Below, one piece after another: positions 1-5,088 of a stretch of DNA of 5,088 bases (positions within the stretch are counted from its first letter, which is position 1; every line of letters starts with the position of its first letter). Origin of the DNA: a virus; IMG/VR virus record IMGVR_UViG_3300029706_000090, positions 1 through 5,088 of that record, one strand, 5' to 3'. The notes beneath the pieces were generated by a model, which was not told where the DNA came from, did no database searches, and saw nothing but the letters and a program-made list of their open reading frames with translations. The position numbers were made by a program, and so were the translations under genes.

Positions 1-93
1 CAGAGTTGCAAGAATAGAGGAAGTAGCGGTCTGAAGTCATCATCCTTTCATAAAAATATTTATGGCACATGTCACGGTCGAAGCATGAGAACC
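1..93. repeat. Terminal direct repeat, identical to 4996-5088. Most simply a circular replicon of about 4995 bp laid out with 93 bp of overlap. Less likely, att-type duplication flanking an integrated copy.
   Basis: Bases 1-93 (cagagttgcaagaatagagg...catgagaacc) recur exactly at 4996-5088. Genes and ORFs continue across the junction. Confidence 0.95.
43..70. other. dif-like candidate XerC/D-type recombination site (tcctttCATAA-aaatat-TTATGgcacat), repeated at 5038-5065
   Basis: The inner half-sites CATAA-N6-TTATG are the most conserved core of dif sites. It lies in a noncoding gap between two small ORFs. No tyrosine-recombinase or integrase gene is present in the element. The outer arms are divergent and the region is AT-rich, so it could be chance. 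Confidence 0.3.
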
Positions 94-185
94 AACATAG
101 AGAAAACAGCAGCGAATACAATGAAATAGCCAATCTCGGGGACAGTGAAGATACCGAAACAATACTGTAAAGGTAAAATAGTCAT
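72..185 (-). CDS. 37-aa hydrophobic small protein, a candidate minor coat protein (pVII/pIX-like by size). Sequence: MTILPLQYCFGIFTVPEIGYFIVFAAVFSMLVLMLRP.
   Basis: Not in the ORF track (too short). Its ATG overlaps the stop of the upstream 205-aa ORF (ATGA at 183-187), implying translational coupling. It is a single predicted transmembrane helix. The stop is TGA at 72-74. Confidence 0.4.
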   Translation of the reverse strand: MTILPLQYCFGIFTVPEIGYFIVFAAVFSMLVLMLRP

Positions 186-802
186 CAGCTCATGCGCCCC
201 CAAATCGCGTTTTTAATCCAAGTAACAGTAGTAATGAAGACAAGGACAACAAGCAGAGCAGAAACGCAAGCTTGCGGGTTGAGTACCTGAGAAGTGGTAG
301 TGGAATCTTCCTCATAAGGGAGCTGAATAAGTTGAGTCGCACTATTATAGGAATACCTTTCAGACGTATAGCCGGACTTGTGCACCGTCTCAGTGCGTTC
401 GATAAAAAACGTGTCTCCGAACCAATCCATAATAGAAGTGAAACTATTAGAGACGTTAGGGAGATTAGCATACAAAGCCGGAGTATCTGCGGCACGGTCA
501 TCATAAGCGGTCAAACTCCCCTCAAAAGGCAATTCTTCTTCCTGAGGAACATAATCTTCACGGAGGTCAGGAGATTCAGTGATATTTTGTGCAGGTTCAC
601 CAGAAGCAGAAGCTTCAGACGGAGAATCATCTCGTGCATCTTGCTGTGAATCAAGTTTAACAATAGCTTCGGCAGATGCCTTAAGATAATCATACTGCTG
701 CACGGTCATGTCACAAGTACTACCGTCTTTATACAGCACAGTGTAGACAGTAACGCCGTCAGTATCAACCCAAGTTTTGATAATAGCAGGGACTTCCATC
801 AT
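185..802 (-). CDS. 205-aa acidic protein with a C-terminal transmembrane helix (tail-anchored), in the position pVI occupies in Ff phages. Function unknown.
   Basis: Long ORF with an excellent SD (GGAGGTGATAA before ATG). Its start overlaps the stop of the 55-aa ORF (ATGA). It has a Glu/Asp/Ser-rich middle and a C-terminal hydrophobic stretch, ACVSALLVVLVFITTVTWIK. Confidence 0.7.
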   Translation of the reverse strand: MMEVPAIIKTWVDTDGVTVYTVLYKDGSTCDMTVQQYDYLKASAEAIVKLDSQQDARDDSPSEASASGEPAQNITESPDLREDYVPQEEELPFEGSLTAYDDRAADTPALYANLPNVSNSFTSIMDWFGDTFFIERTETVHKSGYTSERYSYNSATQLIQLPYEEDSTTTSQVLNPQACVSALLVVLVFITTVTWIKNAIWGRMS

Positions 803-966
803 TTATCACCTCCATCCCAAAGGCCACGGAGAACAAAACCAACAAGCGAAAGCAGAAGACAGACAAGAACGAAGTTGCCAAAGGTACCGAAGCCGAAAAA
901 AGAAAGATTAAGGACATTAGCGATAAACGATGTTACAACACCGAGGGTCGAAACGAAGTCTACCAT
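799..966 (-). CDS. 55-aa small hydrophobic membrane protein, a candidate virion minor coat or membrane protein. Sequence: MVDFVSTLGVVTSFIANVLNLSFFGFGTFGNFVLVCLLLSLVGFVLRGLWDGGDK.
   Basis: Not in the ORF track. AAAGGA lies 9 nt upstream of the ATG at 966. The start overlaps the stop of the 43-aa ORF (ATGGTAG), and its own stop overlaps the start of the 205-aa ORF (ATGA). It has two hydrophobic segments. Confidence 0.5.
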   Translation of the reverse strand: MVDFVSTLGVVTSFIANVLNLSFFGFGTFGNFVLVCLLLSLVGFVLRGLWDGGDK

Positions 967-1091
967 GGCAACCAATCCTTTACGAATTTATAGATACCGA
1001 GGGCAACGAGAAAAACGACAACGGCGATAACAAGAGCACCACCGGAACCGAGCAAGCCAAAGACCTGCTTGAAAAAGTCAATAAAAGTCAT
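960..1091 (-). CDS. 43-aa major-coat-protein candidate (pVIII-like, with no signal peptide, as in Pf3 coat protein). Sequence: MTFIDFFKQVFGLLGSGGALVIAVVVFLVALGIYKFVKDWLPW.
   Basis: Not in the ORF track. GAAAGG lies 9 nt upstream of the ATG at 1091. The ATG overlaps the TGA of the pIII-like gene (ATGA at 1088-1091). The protein has an amphipathic N-terminus, a hydrophobic core, and Lys residues near the C-terminus, which is the typical pVIII layout. Confidence 0.5.
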   Translation of the reverse strand: MTFIDFFKQVFGLLGSGGALVIAVVVFLVALGIYKFVKDWLPW

Positions 1092-2266
1092 CCGTCAACC
1101 GCCTTTCGTATCAACATACGGAGCACAACGGCACCAAAGACCATGAGCGAAATAATGAAAAGGAAGCCGCCAAGATTCTGAAACATGGCATTTAGTACCG
1201 AAATAGAAGTCGAAGCAACGTCAGTATCTACGGAAGAAGAAGAATTCCAAGAATTCAAGTTATCCTTTGTGTTTGTGAGAGTATCGGAATCAACATCAAA
1301 GTCCTTAACAAGCTGGTCTTGAAGCTTATCCATAGTAACTTGAGAAATCCAATCACCAACCTTGACATCAGCAGGAAGCAAAGCATCAGGAACCCAAAGA
1401 GTTAAAGCAAAAGAGATAGAAACATCAAATTGCGTATTATAGACATGCATACCAGAACTAGAAGGTTGCTTACAAAAAACTAAACCAACGTCAGAAGAGG
1501 GAATAGAAAAAGCAAGGGGGAAAGGACGATAAGAGGGAGTACTTAAATGCGACATGCTCAAATGCAAATAATTATCATTAGAGGGGGAAGCCCAAAAATC
1601 ATTATCACCGTTCCGAATACTAAAAGAAGTATGATTAGTAGAACTATCGGATTTATCCCCAAAAAAGAAAATATTAGTGGGAACATAAATAGGATTATAA
1701 TCAAATATTTCGTGATCGAAATAATCAGAAATAGAAGAAGAATCAGAAGAAGGCCAAGAAGTCAAAAAACCAAAAATAGAACGGTCGGAAAAGACATCTG
1801 AAATGTTTTGAAGATCACCTCTCCATTTAACAGGATAAACGCGGAGAGCGCCAATATTGTAAGAAGGGTCACCAACAGGAAAAGAGGGCAAATCAAAAAG
1901 ATAACCAAAATCACTAGTCGGAACATAAGGAACCGAATACATATAAGTATGCGTAGTACCAGAAGAAGAAGTATAAGAATAGGTCGAAGAATCAGTTGAA
2001 TAAGGGAGCCAAGAATTATAAGAACTACCAGGGTAAGAGGAATACTCCTTCATAGGAGAGCAAATCAACTCATAACCAGAATACCCAGATAAAGACTTGC
2101 GTTGCCAAACATACCAAGAGCCAGGACGAGAATGAAAATCATCATTAGAAGGAGACGCGGGCCAATTATTAGATGCAAAAGCAGGAACAGAAAGAGAAAA
2201 AGAAAGAACCAAAGCCGCGACAAGGGCGGCGAAGCGCTTAAAGAAGCACCAATGCTTTTTATTCAC
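1088..2266 (-). CDS. pIII-like adsorption or minor coat protein. It has an N-terminal signal peptide, a Ser/Tyr-rich ectodomain, and a C-terminal membrane anchor. The probable start is GTG at 2266, which follows AAAGGTGGT + 9 nt. The maximal ORF begins at GTG 2284 and gives 398 aa.
   Basis: The signal-peptide-like N-terminus is (M)NKKHWCFFKRFAALVAALVLSFSLSVPAFA|SNN. The C-terminal hydrophobic anchor GFLFIISLMVFGAVVLRMLIRK is followed by a short basic tail. It is the largest structural gene, with tiny coat ORFs downstream of it. Confidence 0.6.
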   Translation of the reverse strand: MNKKHWCFFKRFAALVAALVLSFSLSVPAFASNNWPASPSNDDFHSRPGSWYVWQRKSLSGYSGYELICSPMKEYSSYPGSSYNSWLPYSTDSSTYSYTSSSGTTHTYMYSVPYVPTSDFGYLFDLPSFPVGDPSYNIGALRVYPVKWRGDLQNISDVFSDRSIFGFLTSWPSSDSSSISDYFDHEIFDYNPIYVPTNIFFFGDKSDSSTNHTSFSIRNGDNDFWASPSNDNYLHLSMSHLSTPSYRPFPLAFSIPSSDVGLVFCKQPSSSGMHVYNTQFDVSISFALTLWVPDALLPADVKVGDWISQVTMDKLQDQLVKDFDVDSDTLTNTKDNLNSWNSSSSVDTDVASTSISVLNAMFQNLGGFLFIISLMVFGAVVLRMLIRKAVDG

Positions 2267-2313
2267 TTCGCCACCACCTTTCACGGCATCGAATAACGGA
2301 GGTCAATCCGTAC

Positions 2314-2387
2314 TGGTTGCGGGGTTAGGATTCGAACCTACAGCTTCACGTTCAGAGCGTGACGTGCTACCGTTGCACCACCCCGCC
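2314..2387 (-). tRNA. tRNA-Gln (anticodon CUG at 2355-2353), 74 nt, with an encoded 3' CCA
   Basis: Minus-strand sequence: GGCGGGGUGGUGCAACGGUAGCACGUCACGCUCUGAACGUGAAGCUGUAGGUUCGAAUCCUAACCCCGCAACCA. Cloverleaf features by eye: acceptor stem 2-7/66-71 (6 bp, G1·A72 mismatch), U8, A14, a 4-bp D-stem GUGC/GCAC with G18G19 in the D-loop, a 5-bp anticodon stem UCACG/CGUGA, loop CU-CUG-AA with U33 and A37, a 4-nt variable loop, and a GGUUCGAAUCC T-arm (G49·A65 mismatch). Confidence 0.7.
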
Positions 2388-2447
2388 ATGTGAGAGCGGC
2401 GAACCACTCTCCCATAGGAAATGAAATTTAGGTTTGAACAAAGAAAG

Positions 2448-2690
2448 TTAAACTTCCTCAATTCCGAGAAGAAACCCATTGCGGTCGAAGTCGAAATCGT
2501 ACATAGCGCCAACAACAACAAGCGCATACGGCATCATACGAGCGTCAACATTGATTCTATCAACCTGCACGCCATCGTTGTCATCATTTGCACGCATCGA
2601 ATATTCGACCATGAGAGTAGTAAAATCATAGTTTTTGCCCTGCTTAGATGTGCCAGCGCGACGGGACTTACCAACTACAGTAGCTTTCAT
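2448..2690 (-). CDS. ssDNA-binding protein, gpV-like (80 aa)
   Basis: It lies immediately downstream of Rep, as gV does in Ff. GAAAGGATGG lies 7 nt upstream of the ATG. The segment SRRAGTSKQGKNY resembles the M13 gV DNA-binding wing TRSGVSRQGKPY (pattern S-R-x-G-x-S-[RK]-Q-G-K-x-Y). The size matches gV (87 aa in Ff). Confidence 0.6.
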   Translation of the reverse strand: MKATVVGKSRRAGTSKQGKNYDFTTLMVEYSMRANDDNDGVQVDRINVDARMMPYALVVVGAMYDFDFDRNGFLLGIEEV

Positions 2691-2708
2691 TGAGAGACCA
2701 TCCTTTCA

Positions 2709-3845
2709 TCAGAATAAAGATATATCATCAAACCCGACTTCACTAAAGGGAGAGGGGTCATCAGCGACTTCACGAAATTCTTCAACGGCAACACGCGAGG
2801 ATTCCGAGAATTGCGCAACTTCCTCTGTCAGCGCCAGAGGGGAGAACGGAAGACGCTCATTATAAAACTGTTCCCACTTACAACAAGCGAGGATTAGAAG
2901 CTCAGGGCGATAAAGCATAATATCAATAAGCCTGTGACCGAAGACATTAGCAACATAGGTCATTTTTTCTTCCTCGGTATGGATAGCAACGGAGAACTTT
3001 TGAACAAGGTCATCACTAAGGGGATGCGATAAGTCCTTAGTGAACTTAATGTTACGGGCATCAATATCGGTCACAAACTGCATATCATCCCAGCCATCAG
3101 GGAGAAGAATTTCATTCCCATAGCGACACCAGAATTTACGGAGATAAGCGAAGAGCATGTCAGGGTCTTCATAGTAAAACCAGAAAAGAGGAGAGGGGTC
3201 ATAGACGGTACGAGACCCAGCACGAACACGAGAAATGAATTTAAGCTCCATTTCATAACGAATAATATAGGAATCATCAGGGCAATCCAGAAGTTCACCA
3301 GAAGACATACAGAACTTTTGTTCAGGGTCTTGCAGAGATTTATTATAGATACGACAGAAGACCGCAGAAGACGTTCTGCGACCGATATAAACGGTAGTAG
3401 AATCGCCATAGCCTAGATACATGAACTTGCGAACCTTACGGGCTTTTTCAGGGTAATTCATTTCATCGACAGATGCAGTAACAACACCGAGATAGAACTC
3501 GCGCCACCGTTCTTTTTTCATAACAACATCGAAACAAAAGTCAAGACGGGAAAAATGACCGTATACATGACCTTCCTGCATCAGTGACGCAAGTCGTGGT
3601 AAGGTGGAGCGGAAAAGCTCACAACCATGACCAGACACTTGCAAAGAATGCGGAGATTGTTTCGCACCGTTGTTCGGCTTATAGAAAAGCCCCGCAGGGG
3701 AATTAAAAGGGGAATTCTCACTTGCGTTAGAAGTCTGTGCAAAGTGCAAATCACCCTTAGCAAGAGCATCTTCGATTTTAGGAATAGAAATTGAGCCCTG
3801 TTCAAAAGCAAATGTAGCGTAGTCAAGTTTAACAACCGTTTTCAT
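2709..3845 (-). CDS. rep: Rolling-circle replication initiator of the Rep_trans family (pT181 RepC/RepD-like). The probable start is ATG 3845, which follows AAAGGTGG. The maximal ORF starts at 3887 and gives 392 aa.
   Basis: Motifs: SRLDFCFDV near the N-terminus of the domain; CRIYNK with the putative catalytic Tyr codon at 3345-3347; YIIRYEMELK (compare the R-V-E-I-E-L-K segment of staphylococcal RepC/D). The upstream ATG at 3887 has no SD and lies inside the predicted -10 hexamer of the promoter. Confidence 0.8.
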   Translation of the reverse strand: MKTVVKLDYATFAFEQGSISIPKIEDALAKGDLHFAQTSNASENSPFNSPAGLFYKPNNGAKQSPHSLQVSGHGCELFRSTLPRLASLMQEGHVYGHFSRLDFCFDVVMKKERWREFYLGVVTASVDEMNYPEKARKVRKFMYLGYGDSTTVYIGRRTSSAVFCRIYNKSLQDPEQKFCMSSGELLDCPDDSYIIRYEMELKFISRVRAGSRTVYDPSPLFWFYYEDPDMLFAYLRKFWCRYGNEILLPDGWDDMQFVTDIDARNIKFTKDLSHPLSDDLVQKFSVAIHTEEEKMTYVANVFGHRLIDIMLYRPELLILACCKWEQFYNERLPFSPLALTEEVAQFSESSRVAVEEFREVADDPSPFSEVGFDDISLF

Positions 3846-3877
3846 GTGAGAAAACCACCTTTCATTTCCATGGCTAA

Positions 3878-3906
3878 ATGTTACCATAGTATGGATAAGC
3901 TGTCAA
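3878..3906 (-). promoter_or_regulatory. Sigma70-like promoter reading into rep on the minus strand: -35 TTGACA (3906-3901), 17-bp spacer, -10 TAACAT (3883-3878)
   Basis: Perfect -35 hexamer, optimal 17-bp spacing, 4/6 match at -10. It lies about 35 nt upstream of the SD and ATG at 3845. It is the only obvious promoter on the coding strand, which is consistent with a single operon that ends at the terminator at 4089-4141. Confidence 0.5.
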
Positions 3907-3922
3907 GAGGAAATTTCAAAAA

Positions 3923-3949
3923 GGTGGGCGTATTACACGAACGCCCACC
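3923..3949. other. 9-bp perfect inverted repeat (GGTGGGCGT...ACGCCCACC) with a 9-nt loop. It is a candidate plus-strand origin, Rep nick-site hairpin or operator just upstream of the promoter.
   Basis: Perfect complementarity between 3923-3931 and 3941-3949, in the noncoding region between the terminator and the rep promoter. Confidence 0.4.
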
Positions 3950-4010
3950 GGCTCCCGCCATCACGGTAGACACTACACAACGGAAGCCCCTACCAAACTG
4001 TTTAGGAGGG

Positions 4011-4029
4011 GCAAGGGCTTTGCCCTTGC
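4011..4029. other. 8-bp GC-rich hairpin (GCAAGGGC-TTT-GCCCTTGC) in the intergenic region. It is a candidate for a minus-strand origin, packaging signal or ori structure.
   Basis: Perfect 8-bp stem with a 3-nt loop, embedded in a GC-rich noncoding segment (3950-4088) that is atypical of the rest of the genome. Confidence 0.35.
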
Positions 4030-4088
4030 GGGGACGAGGGACGCGGTGGAGACGCTATCGCGCGACTAAACGTCGGGAGTGCTCCGGT

Positions 4089-4141
4089 AAAAAAAAGAAC
4101 TCCCCTAACCCCCTACGGGGGCACGGGGAGAACTTTTTTTT
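4089..4141 (-). terminator. Strong bidirectional rho-independent terminator. It ends the minus-strand operon directly after the Zot-like gene.
   Basis: A8 (4089-4096), then a two-tier GC stem CTCCCC/GGGGAG (4100-4105/4125-4130) enclosing CCCCC-TAC-GGGGG (4109-4121), then T8 (4134-4141). On the minus strand the stop codon TAA (4142-4140) runs into the stem-loop, followed by UUCUUUUUUUU. Confidence 0.75.
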
Positions 4142-4763
4142 ACTTCGAGGGGGTCTTGCTGATAACCTGCTCTGTATCGTATTCTAAGGCACTCACCTGC
4201 TTCACGGACTTAGGGATAGTATACCACCTTGCCCTGCCAGCCTTGCGCACCGTGTTGACCAGCTCTTGGCCTCCCTCGGGGCGATGTTCCATGGCAATGC
4301 AGGAGCGATAAGGAGTAAGACGACAGAACCAGCCGATGCGGTTGCAAAGAAAAATACGGTCACAGAGGTCACGAATCTTTTTATCAAAGTCCATGGTCTG
4401 AGAAGATACAATAATCGTCAAATGATATTTGCGCTGCATTTTGAAAAACTCAACTGCTTCTCGGGGCATAGTCTTGAAGTCACGGTTAGAGTGGAGCACG
4501 CCTATCTCATCAATGAGAATGAGAGAATCAGGGAGAAAGGTCTGTTTCCAATATTCCGGCTCTAACTCATAACCGATACCCATATTAGAATAGATAAGCC
4601 CCTTATTAGAACGAAGCCACTTATCAGCAACACGAGACATATACAGAGATTTGCCAGAGCCTTTTGAACCAACAACAGCTTCCAATTTGTATGGATTTTT
4701 GCAATAATTATCGATATATACAAAAAGCCAGCAAATACAAAAGATGAGAATACCATAAAGCAT
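4140..4763 (-). CDS. Zot/pI-like P-loop NTPase, a filamentous-phage assembly ATPase. This short form has an N-terminal transmembrane helix and no C-terminal periplasmic domain. The probable start is ATG 4763, which follows AAAGGA + 9 nt. The maximal ORF starts at 4781 and gives 213 aa.
   Basis: Walker A GSKGSGKS is encoded at 4670-4647. Walker B LILIDEIG compares with Zot FLFIDECG. YHLTIIVSSQT compares with Zot HHGWDICLTTPN. The N-terminal hydrophobic segment is LYGILIFCICWLFVYI. It is the last gene before the terminator, as gI is late in Ff. Confidence 0.75.
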   Translation of the reverse strand: MLYGILIFCICWLFVYIDNYCKNPYKLEAVVGSKGSGKSLYMSRVADKWLRSNKGLIYSNMGIGYELEPEYWKQTFLPDSLILIDEIGVLHSNRDFKTMPREAVEFFKMQRKYHLTIIVSSQTMDFDKKIRDLCDRIFLCNRIGWFCRLTPYRSCIAMEHRPEGGQELVNTVRKAGRARWYTIPKSVKQVSALEYDTEQVISKTPSK

Positions 4764-4786
4764 AGCATATAATCCTTTCATAAGAC

Positions 4787-4829
4787 GAGAAAACGTCGCC
4801 GACCATAAAATGGTCGGCGGCGTTTTCTC
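4787..4829. other. 19-bp near-perfect hairpin (one G·U pair) with a 5-nt loop, between the 42-aa coat-like ORF and the Zot-like gene. It is a candidate packaging signal, minus-strand origin or attenuator.
   Basis: GAGAAAACGTCGCCGACCA (4787-4805), loop TAAAA, then TGGTCGGCGGCGTTTTCTC (4811-4829). It ends 5 nt before the ATG at 4781. No U-tract follows in either orientation. Confidence 0.5.
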
Positions 4830-4836
4830 TCAGCGT

Positions 4837-4965
4837 TTAACTGCGACCGGGAATCCAGCGGCGGAGAACACGAAGCACAATGCCCGCGATAGCGATAATC
4901 ACGAAGACAAGCAGAATCGGCTGCGATTCATAGAAATCAATAAGCTGACCCATCCAAGTGATCAT
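4837..4965 (-). CDS. 42-aa pVIII-like coat protein candidate. Sequence: MITWMGQLIDFYESQPILLVFVIIAIAGIVLRVLRRWIPGRS.
   Basis: Not in the ORF track. It has the canonical major-coat layout: an acidic amphipathic N-terminus (D10, E13), a hydrophobic core, and a basic C-terminus (four Arg). It is followed by the 19-bp hairpin, which is reminiscent of the structure after gVIII in Ff. There is no clear SD, so the start is uncertain. Confidence 0.4.
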   Translation of the reverse strand: MITWMGQLIDFYESQPILLVFVIIAIAGIVLRVLRRWIPGRS

Positions 4966-4995
4966 CGAAGTGAAGAATTCACCGACCAAGGAAAG

Positions 4996-5088
4996 CAGAG
5001 TTGCAAGAATAGAGGAAGTAGCGGTCTGAAGTCATCATCCTTTCATAAAAATATTTATGGCACATGTCACGGTCGAAGCATGAGAACC
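4996..5088. repeat. Second copy of the 93-bp terminal repeat (equals 1-93)
   Basis: Exact identity with 1-93, offset 4995. Confidence 0.95.

Follow-up and report, generated by a model that had tools for sequence, protein, structure and literature searches.

The virions of the filamentous Ff phages carry at their tips a few copies each of pVI, pVII and pIX, hydrophobic proteins of 32–112 amino acids (aa) without a signal peptide, whose genes lie in the structural block and are coupled to their neighbours. Among the small proteins of inoviruses, class-I major coat proteins such as Ff pVIII are distinguished by a cleavable signal peptide on a product of roughly 55 residues. We analysed a viral DNA of 5,088 nucleotides (nt), positions 1 to 5,088 of IMG/VR record IMGVR_UViG_3300029706_000090 (referred to as the window), which is a circular inovirus (Tubulavirales), with a small circle, a Zot/pI-like ATPase, a rolling-circle Rep and genes oriented on one strand. 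Here we describe two short open reading frames (ORFs) of this phage, p43 and p55, located between the gene for a pIII-like adsorption protein (p398) and the gene for a 205-aa protein (p205), and a further gene, p64, a candidate for the major coat protein gene whose translation appears to be started at a CAG codon by a transfer RNA (tRNA) encoded by the phage itself.

Together with p37, another hydrophobic ORF missing from the ORF listing, p43 and p55 match Ff pVI, pVII and pIX in size, hydrophobicity, gene position and coupling; there is no sequence similarity, and the small genes all follow the pIII-like gene, with none before the coat gene. The likeness of p43 to the class-II coat protein of Pf3 (44 aa) comprises its length of 43 aa, the lack of a signal peptide, a transmembrane (TM) segment after a Gly-rich hinge and an aromatic/basic C-terminus. 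It differs in that the N-terminus of the Pf3 protein, unlike that of p43, is net acidic, and in that p43 is coupled to the adsorption gene. The p64 family shares with Ff pVIII an acidic amphipathic N-terminus, a stretch of about 19 hydrophobic residues and a basic C-terminus, its distant, putative members carry a signal peptide that ends in AXA, and a terminator-like hairpin follows p64, as a terminator follows Ff gene VIII. In contrast to pVIII, the p64 of the window has no signal peptide, is encoded immediately ahead of Zot and not ahead of the pIII-like gene, lacks a canonical start codon and shows no similarity to the fd protein.

For the start of translation, the closest described systems are engineered. 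The work of RajBhandary and Schulman reportedly produced anticodon mutants of the Escherichia coli initiator tRNAfMet, among them an amber-initiator tRNA(CUA) and CUG, GAC and AAC variants. Non-AUG initiator tRNAs have also been engineered recently (PMC11744186; bioRxiv 10.1101/2021.05.25.445580). The phage tRNA resembles such mutants in combining an initiator-type acceptor stem with a non-CAU anticodon able to pair with a non-AUG codon, UAG included, that is placed behind a Shine-Dalgarno (SD) site. It differs from them in that the proposed pairing is natural, phage-encoded and dedicated to one gene, exists in at least six codon/anticodon combinations, and involves an anticodon stem that has lost one or two of its three G:C pairs.

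Conservation and coding capacity of p43 and p55

A sequence-only reading of the window had proposed that two short ORFs of 43 and 55 aa, each with an SD motif and with single or double hydrophobic helices, fill the apparent gap between the pIII-like gene and the 205-aa gene. Both ORFs were found at the proposed places on the minus strand (Table 1) and do fill this gap. SD sites can be read directly 7 and 9 nt before the ATG codons of p43 and p55, respectively, and one hydrophobic helix is present in p43 (residues 19–33) and two are present in p55, which the ORF listing gives as a 58-aa product starting at an upstream TTG (position 975). As the window contains 73 ORFs of at least 20 aa, small ORF size alone is no evidence for a gene. 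The frames were compared among 42 genomes, namely the window, 37 IMG/VR genomes selected for over 93% identity in Zot and 4 GenBank genomes. Conservation among relatives, on which the sequence-only reading had made its proposal depend, was found throughout: both frames were open and started at the same position in all 42 genomes, the start codon being ATG except for GTG in four genomes (p43) and in one genome (p55). Variable columns clustered at codon position 3, and the ratio of nonsynonymous to synonymous substitution rates (dN/dS) was 0.125 for p43 and 0.206 for p55. The shifted frames of the same strand gave dN/dS values of 1.1–4.0 and contained stop codons in every genome in both frames, and the frames on the opposite strand were broken in 11–42 of the 42 genomes.

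Both proteins showed end-to-end matches to PHROG families of unknown function (p43, phrog_22214, E = 1e-26; p55, phrog_24276, E = 2e-34), and about 100 clusters in the protein database carry p43, uniformly as a 43-aa protein. Identity of p43 was 65–100% where that of the adjoining pIII-like protein drops to 29%, and its C-terminal motif YKFVK[DE]WLPW was nearly invariant; since the bajarodino and Dulem viruses keep this motif in spite of synonymous changes, it is the protein that is under constraint. Start and stop codons overlap along the chain, by ATGA between p398 and p43 (1088–1091), by ATGGTAG between p43 and p55 (960–966) and by ATGA between p55 and p205 (799–802). That p43 and p55 are chance open frames in a non-coding spacer, an idea to which the abundance of short ORFs lends itself, is hardly credible in view of the intact frames, dN/dS values far below 1, stops in the other frames, conserved SD sites and starts, and the roughly 100 independently called clusters. 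Both are almost certainly real genes. They are new members of known, uncharacterised families and have already been called as genes by other annotators.

GGAGGTGAT both encodes the conserved acidic tail of p55 (WDGGDK; 799–815, minus strand) and serves as the SD site of p205, so that the C-terminal GGD derives from the SD sequence; a GGD ending recurs in distant positional homologues of p55 (GGDGDGD, GGDDN). In one relative (L019, around 3650–3810), p398 and p43 are fused in frame (...IKKAVW-MTFTEFF...) through a junction shorter by 2 nt, which could be a natural hint of a physical partnership or an assembly error.

A candidate major coat protein without a canonical start codon

According to the sequence-only reading, the element would appear to lack a capsid protein if the two short ORFs were disregarded. 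This was not supported: the question of where the capsid gene lies led to a better candidate, p64, and to the tRNA described below. In p64, an acidic N-terminus, a TM helix and a basic C-terminus follow one another as in coat proteins: the first half carries a net charge of −2, residues 38–52 form the TM helix and the last 12 residues, four of them arginines, carry a net charge of +4. Among the small genes, p64 showed the lowest dN/dS (0.08). A hidden Markov model (HMM) of the p64 family found a member in 102 of 107 loci, beside Zot in the loci inspected and frequently as tandem duplicates. Distant matches to this HMM (L066, L067, L079, L083, L087 and L104; E 1e-5 to 1e-9) carry a Sec signal peptide with an n-region, an h-region and an AYA, AFA or ALA motif. 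The p64 of the window has no signal peptide, and in the alignment the residue after the motif coincides with the N-terminus of those p64 versions for which a tRNA-dependent start is proposed below. Directly after p64 lies the clearest intrinsic-terminator-like hairpin of the genome, which also has the longest stem in the scan. Only 9 clusters in the protein database carry p64, with varying lengths, versus about 100 uniform ones for p43; the gene is missed by ORF finders because it has no canonical start codon.

Similarity searches were negative for p64. A Pfam scan of the window proteins revealed no coat family, there was no curated coat family for p64 in Pfam or PHROGs and likewise no meaningful match in the PDB, and the comparison with fd pVIII by hhalign gave a probability of 1.7%. 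Judged by its architecture, its position and its signal-peptide-bearing relatives, p64 is probably the major coat protein. It would insert into the membrane with the N-terminus out and the C-terminus in without a signal peptide, its four C-terminal arginines facing the DNA. A paralogous relationship between p43 and p64, which share the tail G-I-x-basic-x-x-basic-x-W-[LI]-P, was unsupported (hhalign probability 3.5%).

No usable ATG, GTG or TTG start is present in the p64 frame. The CAG codon was invariant, with in-frame stop codons one or two codons upstream, and variation of the wobble type as well as in-frame insertions and deletions of 3 or 6 nt begin right after it. Over the 7–14 codons from CAG to the conserved VGEFF motif, dN/dS was 0.38 in frame versus 0.72 and 3.3 out of frame. 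In bajarodino viruses 60 and 79 and Dulem virus 75, which have no tRNA, an ordinary ATG or GTG occupies the aligned position (MEGASTT versus LQGATTS).

Other ways of starting this frame were examined and rejected. The start given in the ORF listing, TTG at 4989, lacks an SD site and reads CAG in 12 of the 42 genomes, and the coding constraint extends upstream of it. Reading TGA as a sense codon (genetic code 4/25), which would extend p64 to an ATG in ATG AAA GGA, is at odds with the use of TGA as the stop codon of p398, p55, p205 and p37, with long ORFs free of internal TGA, with an unconserved upstream ATG (relatives have TTG, AAG or TCG) and with a spacer upstream of p64 whose length varies by non-multiples of three. 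As to a +1 frameshift starting from the out-of-frame ATG pair, conservation of the slippery context is lacking (the ATG is followed by ACT, TTT, CTT or ACA), and L044 has a single ATG.

The phage tRNA and the first codon of p64

Between p80 and the pIII-like gene, all complete genomes of the clade have a tRNA gene with the anticodon CTG; the only ones lacking it are four short contigs (3.3–4.2 kb), which are probably incomplete. The acceptor stem is GGCGGGG/CCCCGCA, and in six genomes with CGCGGGG it is identical to that of E. coli initiator tRNAfMet, whose sequence was checked against 5,426 E. coli genomes (100% match; mltA and amiC flank the cluster of three tRNA-Met genes in which it lies). 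When 21 phage tRNAs were aligned with E. coli tRNAfMet, 92% of the pair cells were paired and compensatory changes were found in 14 of 21 pairs. Positions 1:72 were unpaired in 21 of the 22 sequences, including E. coli tRNAfMet, and G2:C71 and C3:G70 were invariant in all 22. The 1:72 mismatch, G2:C71, C3:G70 and A73 are the determinants of formylation. The anticodon is in no case CAU: depending on the lineage it is CUG, UUG, AGU, CGU, UGU or CUA. The discriminator base is A73 with CTG, TTG and CTA, C73 with CGT, and T73 with TGT and AGT, a correlation that may reflect the charging synthetase.

In nine lineages, the first codon of the p64-like gene matches the anticodon of the resident tRNA, with six codons being used: CAG with anticodon CTG (the window clade, L049 and L103), CAA with TTG (L045–48), ACT with AGT (L050 and L060), ACG with CGT (L051–53), ACA with TGT (L059) and TAG with CTA (L101). 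The matching codon is situated 5–9 nt after the SD site and at or just past the last in-frame stop codon. In L101, where the context reads GGAGGTGAATTTG TAG ACT ACT GTC, the downstream TTVT aligns with the N-termini of the other lineages. Counting synonymous choices only, the chance of such a match is about 2e-4; each switch needs the right codon out of 61–64. An automated scan of tRNA-bearing genomes found the cognate codon behind an SD site in the p64-like ORF and, L050 apart, no canonical start preceded by an SD site; in complete genomes without the tRNA, ATG, GTG or TTG was found behind the SD site. The apparent exceptions in the scan were L061, L063 and L064, short contigs with CAG at the start position that may be incomplete, L052, with an SD variant outside the search pattern, L101, in which TAG was treated as a stop, and L095, with an ATG directly after the SD site. 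Overall, we consider it quite likely that the phage tRNA initiates the translation of p64.

The coat-like gene is often tandem-duplicated in L049–L053, L101 and many of L062–L100. Where this occurs in tRNA-bearing genomes, the first copy begins with the private codon and the second with an ordinary start codon (ATG or TTG); in other genomes, the copies differ in that only one has a signal peptide.

Several other views of the tRNA were set aside. ARAGORN gave a 69-nt reading (G1:C72, 4-bp T stem) for the tRNA of the window, and the 74-nt reading was preferred, as it keeps U8, A73 and the CCA end and is the one given by ARAGORN for most relatives. A role as a codon-usage helper is unlikely: CAG accounts for only 25 of 1,475 codons in the window, so that a need in elongation does not account for the tRNA, and the one host contig identified has a GC content of 62%. 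An origin as a remnant of a phage attachment site (attP) is unlikely as well, given the full length of the tRNA, its encoded CCA, the compensatory stem changes and the lack of an integrase.

A search of IMG/VR with the D-arm motif yielded 30 loci outside these inoviruses, 26 of which were tRNA-Met(CAT), many with a GGG/CCC anticodon stem; these 26 are apparently initiator tRNAs located on other phage contigs. Two contigs, neither with a Zot gene, carry the same tRNA body as the inoviruses: in L134, a 12-kb viral contig (match at 8230), the anticodon is CAG ('Leu'), with an A1/A72 mismatch and an ACCA end, and in L146, a 36-kb contig (match at 2815), it is AGT. These two may represent similar private-start systems outside the inoviruses.

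Preferred and alternative explanations

The sequence-only reading had put p43 forward as a pVIII-like coat candidate with a class-II major-coat layout. Of that layout, the length of 43 aa, the absence of a signal peptide and the single TM segment stood up to analysis; the charge pattern and a relationship to a coat family did not. The charged residues of the N-terminal half are D5 and K8 (net 0) and those of the last 12 residues are K35, K38 and D39 (net +1), as opposed to −2 and +4 in p64. Nothing was found for p43 among all PDB chains at E ≤ 10 (phmmer, hmmsearch), Pfam, PHROGs and the PDB held no meaningful coat-family match for it, and hhalign gave a probability of 0.8% against the Pf3 coat sequence. 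As p43 is coupled in a chain that starts from the adsorption gene, it would have a similar, low output, unsuited to the roughly two thousand coat copies per filament, and it has neither a terminator nor a promoter of its own. Cleavable signal peptides, the hallmark of class-I coat proteins, occur only among distant, putative members of the p64 family, and in L056 and L057, which have a p64-like gene, no p43-like one is found among the annotated proteins shown. That p43 is nonetheless a Pf3-like major coat protein made without a signal peptide, and p64 something else, such as a pVI-like tip protein, we regard as decidedly unlikely; besides the size and layout mentioned, this idea draws on an N-terminal amphipathic segment, on K35 and K38 near the C-terminus, on a canonical ATG or GTG start with a good SD site in every genome, and on the fact that the gene just before gene I in the Ff phages is gene VI, not gene VIII. 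In our assessment, p43 is probably not the major coat protein.

In the reading that we prefer, p43 and p55 are true small proteins of the inner membrane and belong to the morphogenesis block of this inovirus of Gram-positive gut Clostridia; to judge from the coupling, they would be made in step with the low-copy adsorption protein. Most likely they act as minor components of the virion tip or of assembly, with functions like those of Ff pVI, pVII and pIX, and p43, p55 and p37 are all probably minor tip or assembly proteins. A rather improbable alternative is that p43 and p55 are conserved membrane proteins outside the virion, for instance Zot partners resembling Ff pXI, factors for superinfection exclusion or modulators of membrane stress. 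No physical tie links them to the particle, small hydrophobic PHROG proteins of unknown function would fit such roles, and p55's C-terminal tail is partly set by the overlapping SD site of p205. Against this stand their position in the structural block, with stop/start overlaps kept even where p398 falls to 29% identity, the little room that a 5-kb genome leaves for accessory genes, and the in-frame fusion of p398 and p43 in L019, which would suit proteins that work together.

A start of p64 independent of the tRNA could be brought about by a near-cognate use of the host tRNAfMet, by a frameshift from ATG ATG or by initiation at a downstream CTG, TTG or ATG, the phage tRNA then being an elongator, a suppressor or an integration remnant. 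In the window the out-of-frame ATG ATG indeed abuts the SD site, a downstream TTG (4989) or ATG is present in many genomes, and the anticodon stem of the tRNA lacks the GGG/CCC signature. Other inoviruses integrate at tRNA genes (PMC8530359), which would agree with an integration remnant. We nevertheless hold a tRNA-independent start to be unlikely: 12 genomes have CAG in place of the TTG and the codon preceding the start is variable (CTT, TTT, CAT, CCG), in-frame indels and coding constraint set in at CAG, no integrase is encoded, and compensatory changes preserve the tRNA as a full-length cloverleaf with an encoded CCA. No such mechanism predicts six different first codons, UAG included, that match the resident anticodon.

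A number of observations weigh against a coat protein p64 started by the phage tRNA and against p43 as a minor component. The lineages with matching codons are related, which reduces nine cases to about five independent anticodon/codon switches, and in-frame ATG, GTG or TTG codons occur within a few codons of the start in L045–48, L049, L050, L051 and L103, where they may serve as the start. The three consecutive G:C pairs of the anticodon stem of initiators (29:41, 30:40, 31:39) are not kept, the window having A:U, C:G and G:C and many relatives A:U, G:C and G:C at these positions. U11:A24, found in 21 of 22 sequences, is elongator-like, whereas bacterial initiators have a purine at 11 and a pyrimidine at 24, A11:U24 in E. 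coli tRNAfMet. For the most abundant virion protein, a non-canonical start would be an unexpected solution. With 43 versus 44 aa, no signal peptide, a Gly-rich hinge and two lysines near the C-terminus, p43 does resemble the Pf3 coat protein, and p43 and p64 are alike in lacking detectable similarity to any known coat family. The functional assignments are all inferred from sequence. Taken as a whole, minor tip or assembly roles for p43 and p55 together with a coat protein p64 whose CAG start is read by the phage tRNA form the best explanation, towards which we lean.

Proposed mechanism and its significance

The phage tRNA would be a derivative of an initiator tRNA in which the anticodon has changed from CAU to CUG, so that CAG is read in the ribosomal P site. 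It would be transcribed within the operon transcript, released by host RNase P and a 3' nuclease, charged with an amino acid and probably formylated by virtue of its initiator-type acceptor stem. Anticodon mutants of tRNAfMet made in the laboratory are charged with glutamine when the anticodon is CUG or CUA and with threonine when it is NGU. The 30S subunit would then employ the phage tRNA at the coat gene's SD-positioned CAG, and p64 would be inserted into the membrane with its acidic N-terminus outside. The products of the coupled cistrons (p398, p43, p55, p205 and p37) would supply the tips and assembly partners, and Zot would drive extrusion. Possible benefits are that coat synthesis is tied to the level of the phage tRNA, or that a non-methionine N-terminus is obtained without a signal peptide. 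It seems fairly likely that this lineage of gut inoviruses of Clostridia (see below) carries a private initiation system, composed of a non-CAU derivative of an initiator tRNA and a matched first codon of the coat gene in at least six co-evolved states, and thus makes a tRNA-dependent coat protein whose non-methionine N-terminus lies at the cleavage position of its relatives and which has p43 and p55 as partners.

The literature covered, which is incomplete, contained only engineered non-AUG initiator tRNAs; it held no natural phage-encoded case and no inovirus tRNAs used in this way. If the proposal is true, this would apparently be the first natural reassignment of a start codon by a dedicated non-AUG initiator tRNA, so far known only as a laboratory construct, and it would explain why 1.5% of a 5-kb phage genome is given to a tRNA. 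The coat gene would then be one that gene callers systematically overlook in these abundant gut inoviruses, ready-made orthogonal initiator/codon pairs would be at hand for synthetic biology in Gram-positive bacteria, and the need for three G:C pairs and a CAU anticodon in initiation in vivo would become testable. With the default ORF cut-off, four of this phage's nine genes stay hidden. For PHROGs 22214 and 24276, p43 and p55 provide a comparative basis for annotation as membrane proteins of the morphogenesis module.

Genome organization and host

An exact terminal repeat of 93 nt (1–93 = 4996–5088) makes the window a complete circle of 4,995 bp, the junction of which is crossed by the p64 gene. 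According to the ORF listing, the minus strand carries every credible gene, and Pfam matches among the window proteins were PF05707 (Zot) and PF02486 (Rep_trans). In the sense of transcription, the order is promoter-like site and hairpins, Rep_trans, p80, tRNA, p398, p43, p55, p205, p37, p64, hairpin terminator and Zot (Table 1); from p398 to p37, stop and start codons overlap at all four junctions. Genes of similar size in the same order were found in distant relatives, namely the bajarodino and Dulem viruses, L059 and L060. The closest GenBank records are four porcine genomes labelled Inovirus sp., in all of which the small genes are unannotated. p37 showed a dN/dS of 0.10; in 41 of the 42 genomes its frame was open and began with ATG, the start being different in L019. 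Among the relatives with over 93% identity in Zot, identity of p398 was 29–66%.

Table 1. Features of the window and their coordinates
Feature	Position	Strand	Remarks
p64, probable major coat protein, 63 aa, QTATSSILATLLSLVGEFFTSMITWMGQLIDFYESQPILLVFVIIAIAGIVLRVLRRWIPGRS	4837..5028	-	First codon CAG (5026-5028, repeated at 31-33), preceded in frame by TGA TGA
SD site of p64, GAAAGGA	5038..5044	-	9 nt before CAG; same motif and spacing before Zot and p80
tRNA, 74 nt, anticodon CUG	2314..2387	-	Initiator-type acceptor stem: G1/A72 mismatch, G2:C71, C3:G70; U8, A73, encoded CCA
Intrinsic-terminator-like hairpin	4797..4819	-	10-bp stem with 7 G-C pairs, T-rich tail; directly after p64, before Zot
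p43, single-TM protein, 43 aa, MTFIDFFKQVFGLLGSGGALVIAVVVFLVALGIYKFVKDWLPW	960..1091	-	ATG start; phrog_22214
SD site of p43, GAAAGGCGG	1099..1107	-	Inside the 3' end of p398; conserved in relatives
p55, protein with two hydrophobic helices, 55 aa	799..966	-	ATG start; phrog_24276
SD site of p55, TAAAGGA	976..982	-	Inside the 3' end of p43
p398, pIII-like adsorption protein	1088..2284	-	phrog_24417; C-terminal TM anchor; stop overlaps the p43 start (ATGA)
p205, protein with C-terminal TM helix	185..802	-	phrog_27347; start overlaps the p55 stop (ATGA)
p37, unlisted hydrophobic ORF, 37 aa, MTILPLQYCFGIFTVPEIGYFIVFAAVFSMLVLMLRP	72..185	-	Start overlaps the p205 stop
Zot/pI-like assembly ATPase, 207 aa	4140..4763	-	From ATG at 4763; PF05707, phrog_25712
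Rep_trans replication initiator	2709-3845	-	PF02486
p80, RstB-like protein, 80 aa		-	Precedes the tRNA
Promoter-like site	3878-3906		Intergenic region, with hairpins

A partial prophage (p55 to Zot, plus about 1 kb) occupies positions 1–3000 of L044, at the end of a 96-kb contig labelled Alistipes onderdonkii. This label was rejected as a binning error. The flanking region (3000–11804) has a GC content of 62% and encodes the spore-coat proteins CotJA/B/C, a PASTA kinase, RsgA and RadA; its CotJ genes, PASTA kinase and GC content indicate that the host is a spore-forming member of the Clostridia, which agrees with the strong SD sites before every gene and the lack of a secretin gene.

The likely start of p398 is the GTG at 2266 rather than the codon at 2284 (region 2248–2284, minus strand); from GTG the protein would have a signal peptide, MNKKHWCFFKRFAALVAALVLSFSLSVPAFA, that ends in AFA and is followed by SNN. 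The PHROG alignment begins at residue 28. A repeat family (D2; 41–58, 2699–2716 and 4771–4788) places TATGAAAGGAT before p64, p80 and Zot, with a variant, ATGAAAGGTGG, before Rep; it represents a shared ribosome-binding context, and the ATG inside the motif is out of frame with the genes. Right after Zot follows a non-coding region of 240 nt (3900–4143) with G+C-rich hairpins, which may combine a terminator with replication or packaging signals. It includes, at 4087–4143, a 27-nt inverted repeat with runs of A and T on its flanks.

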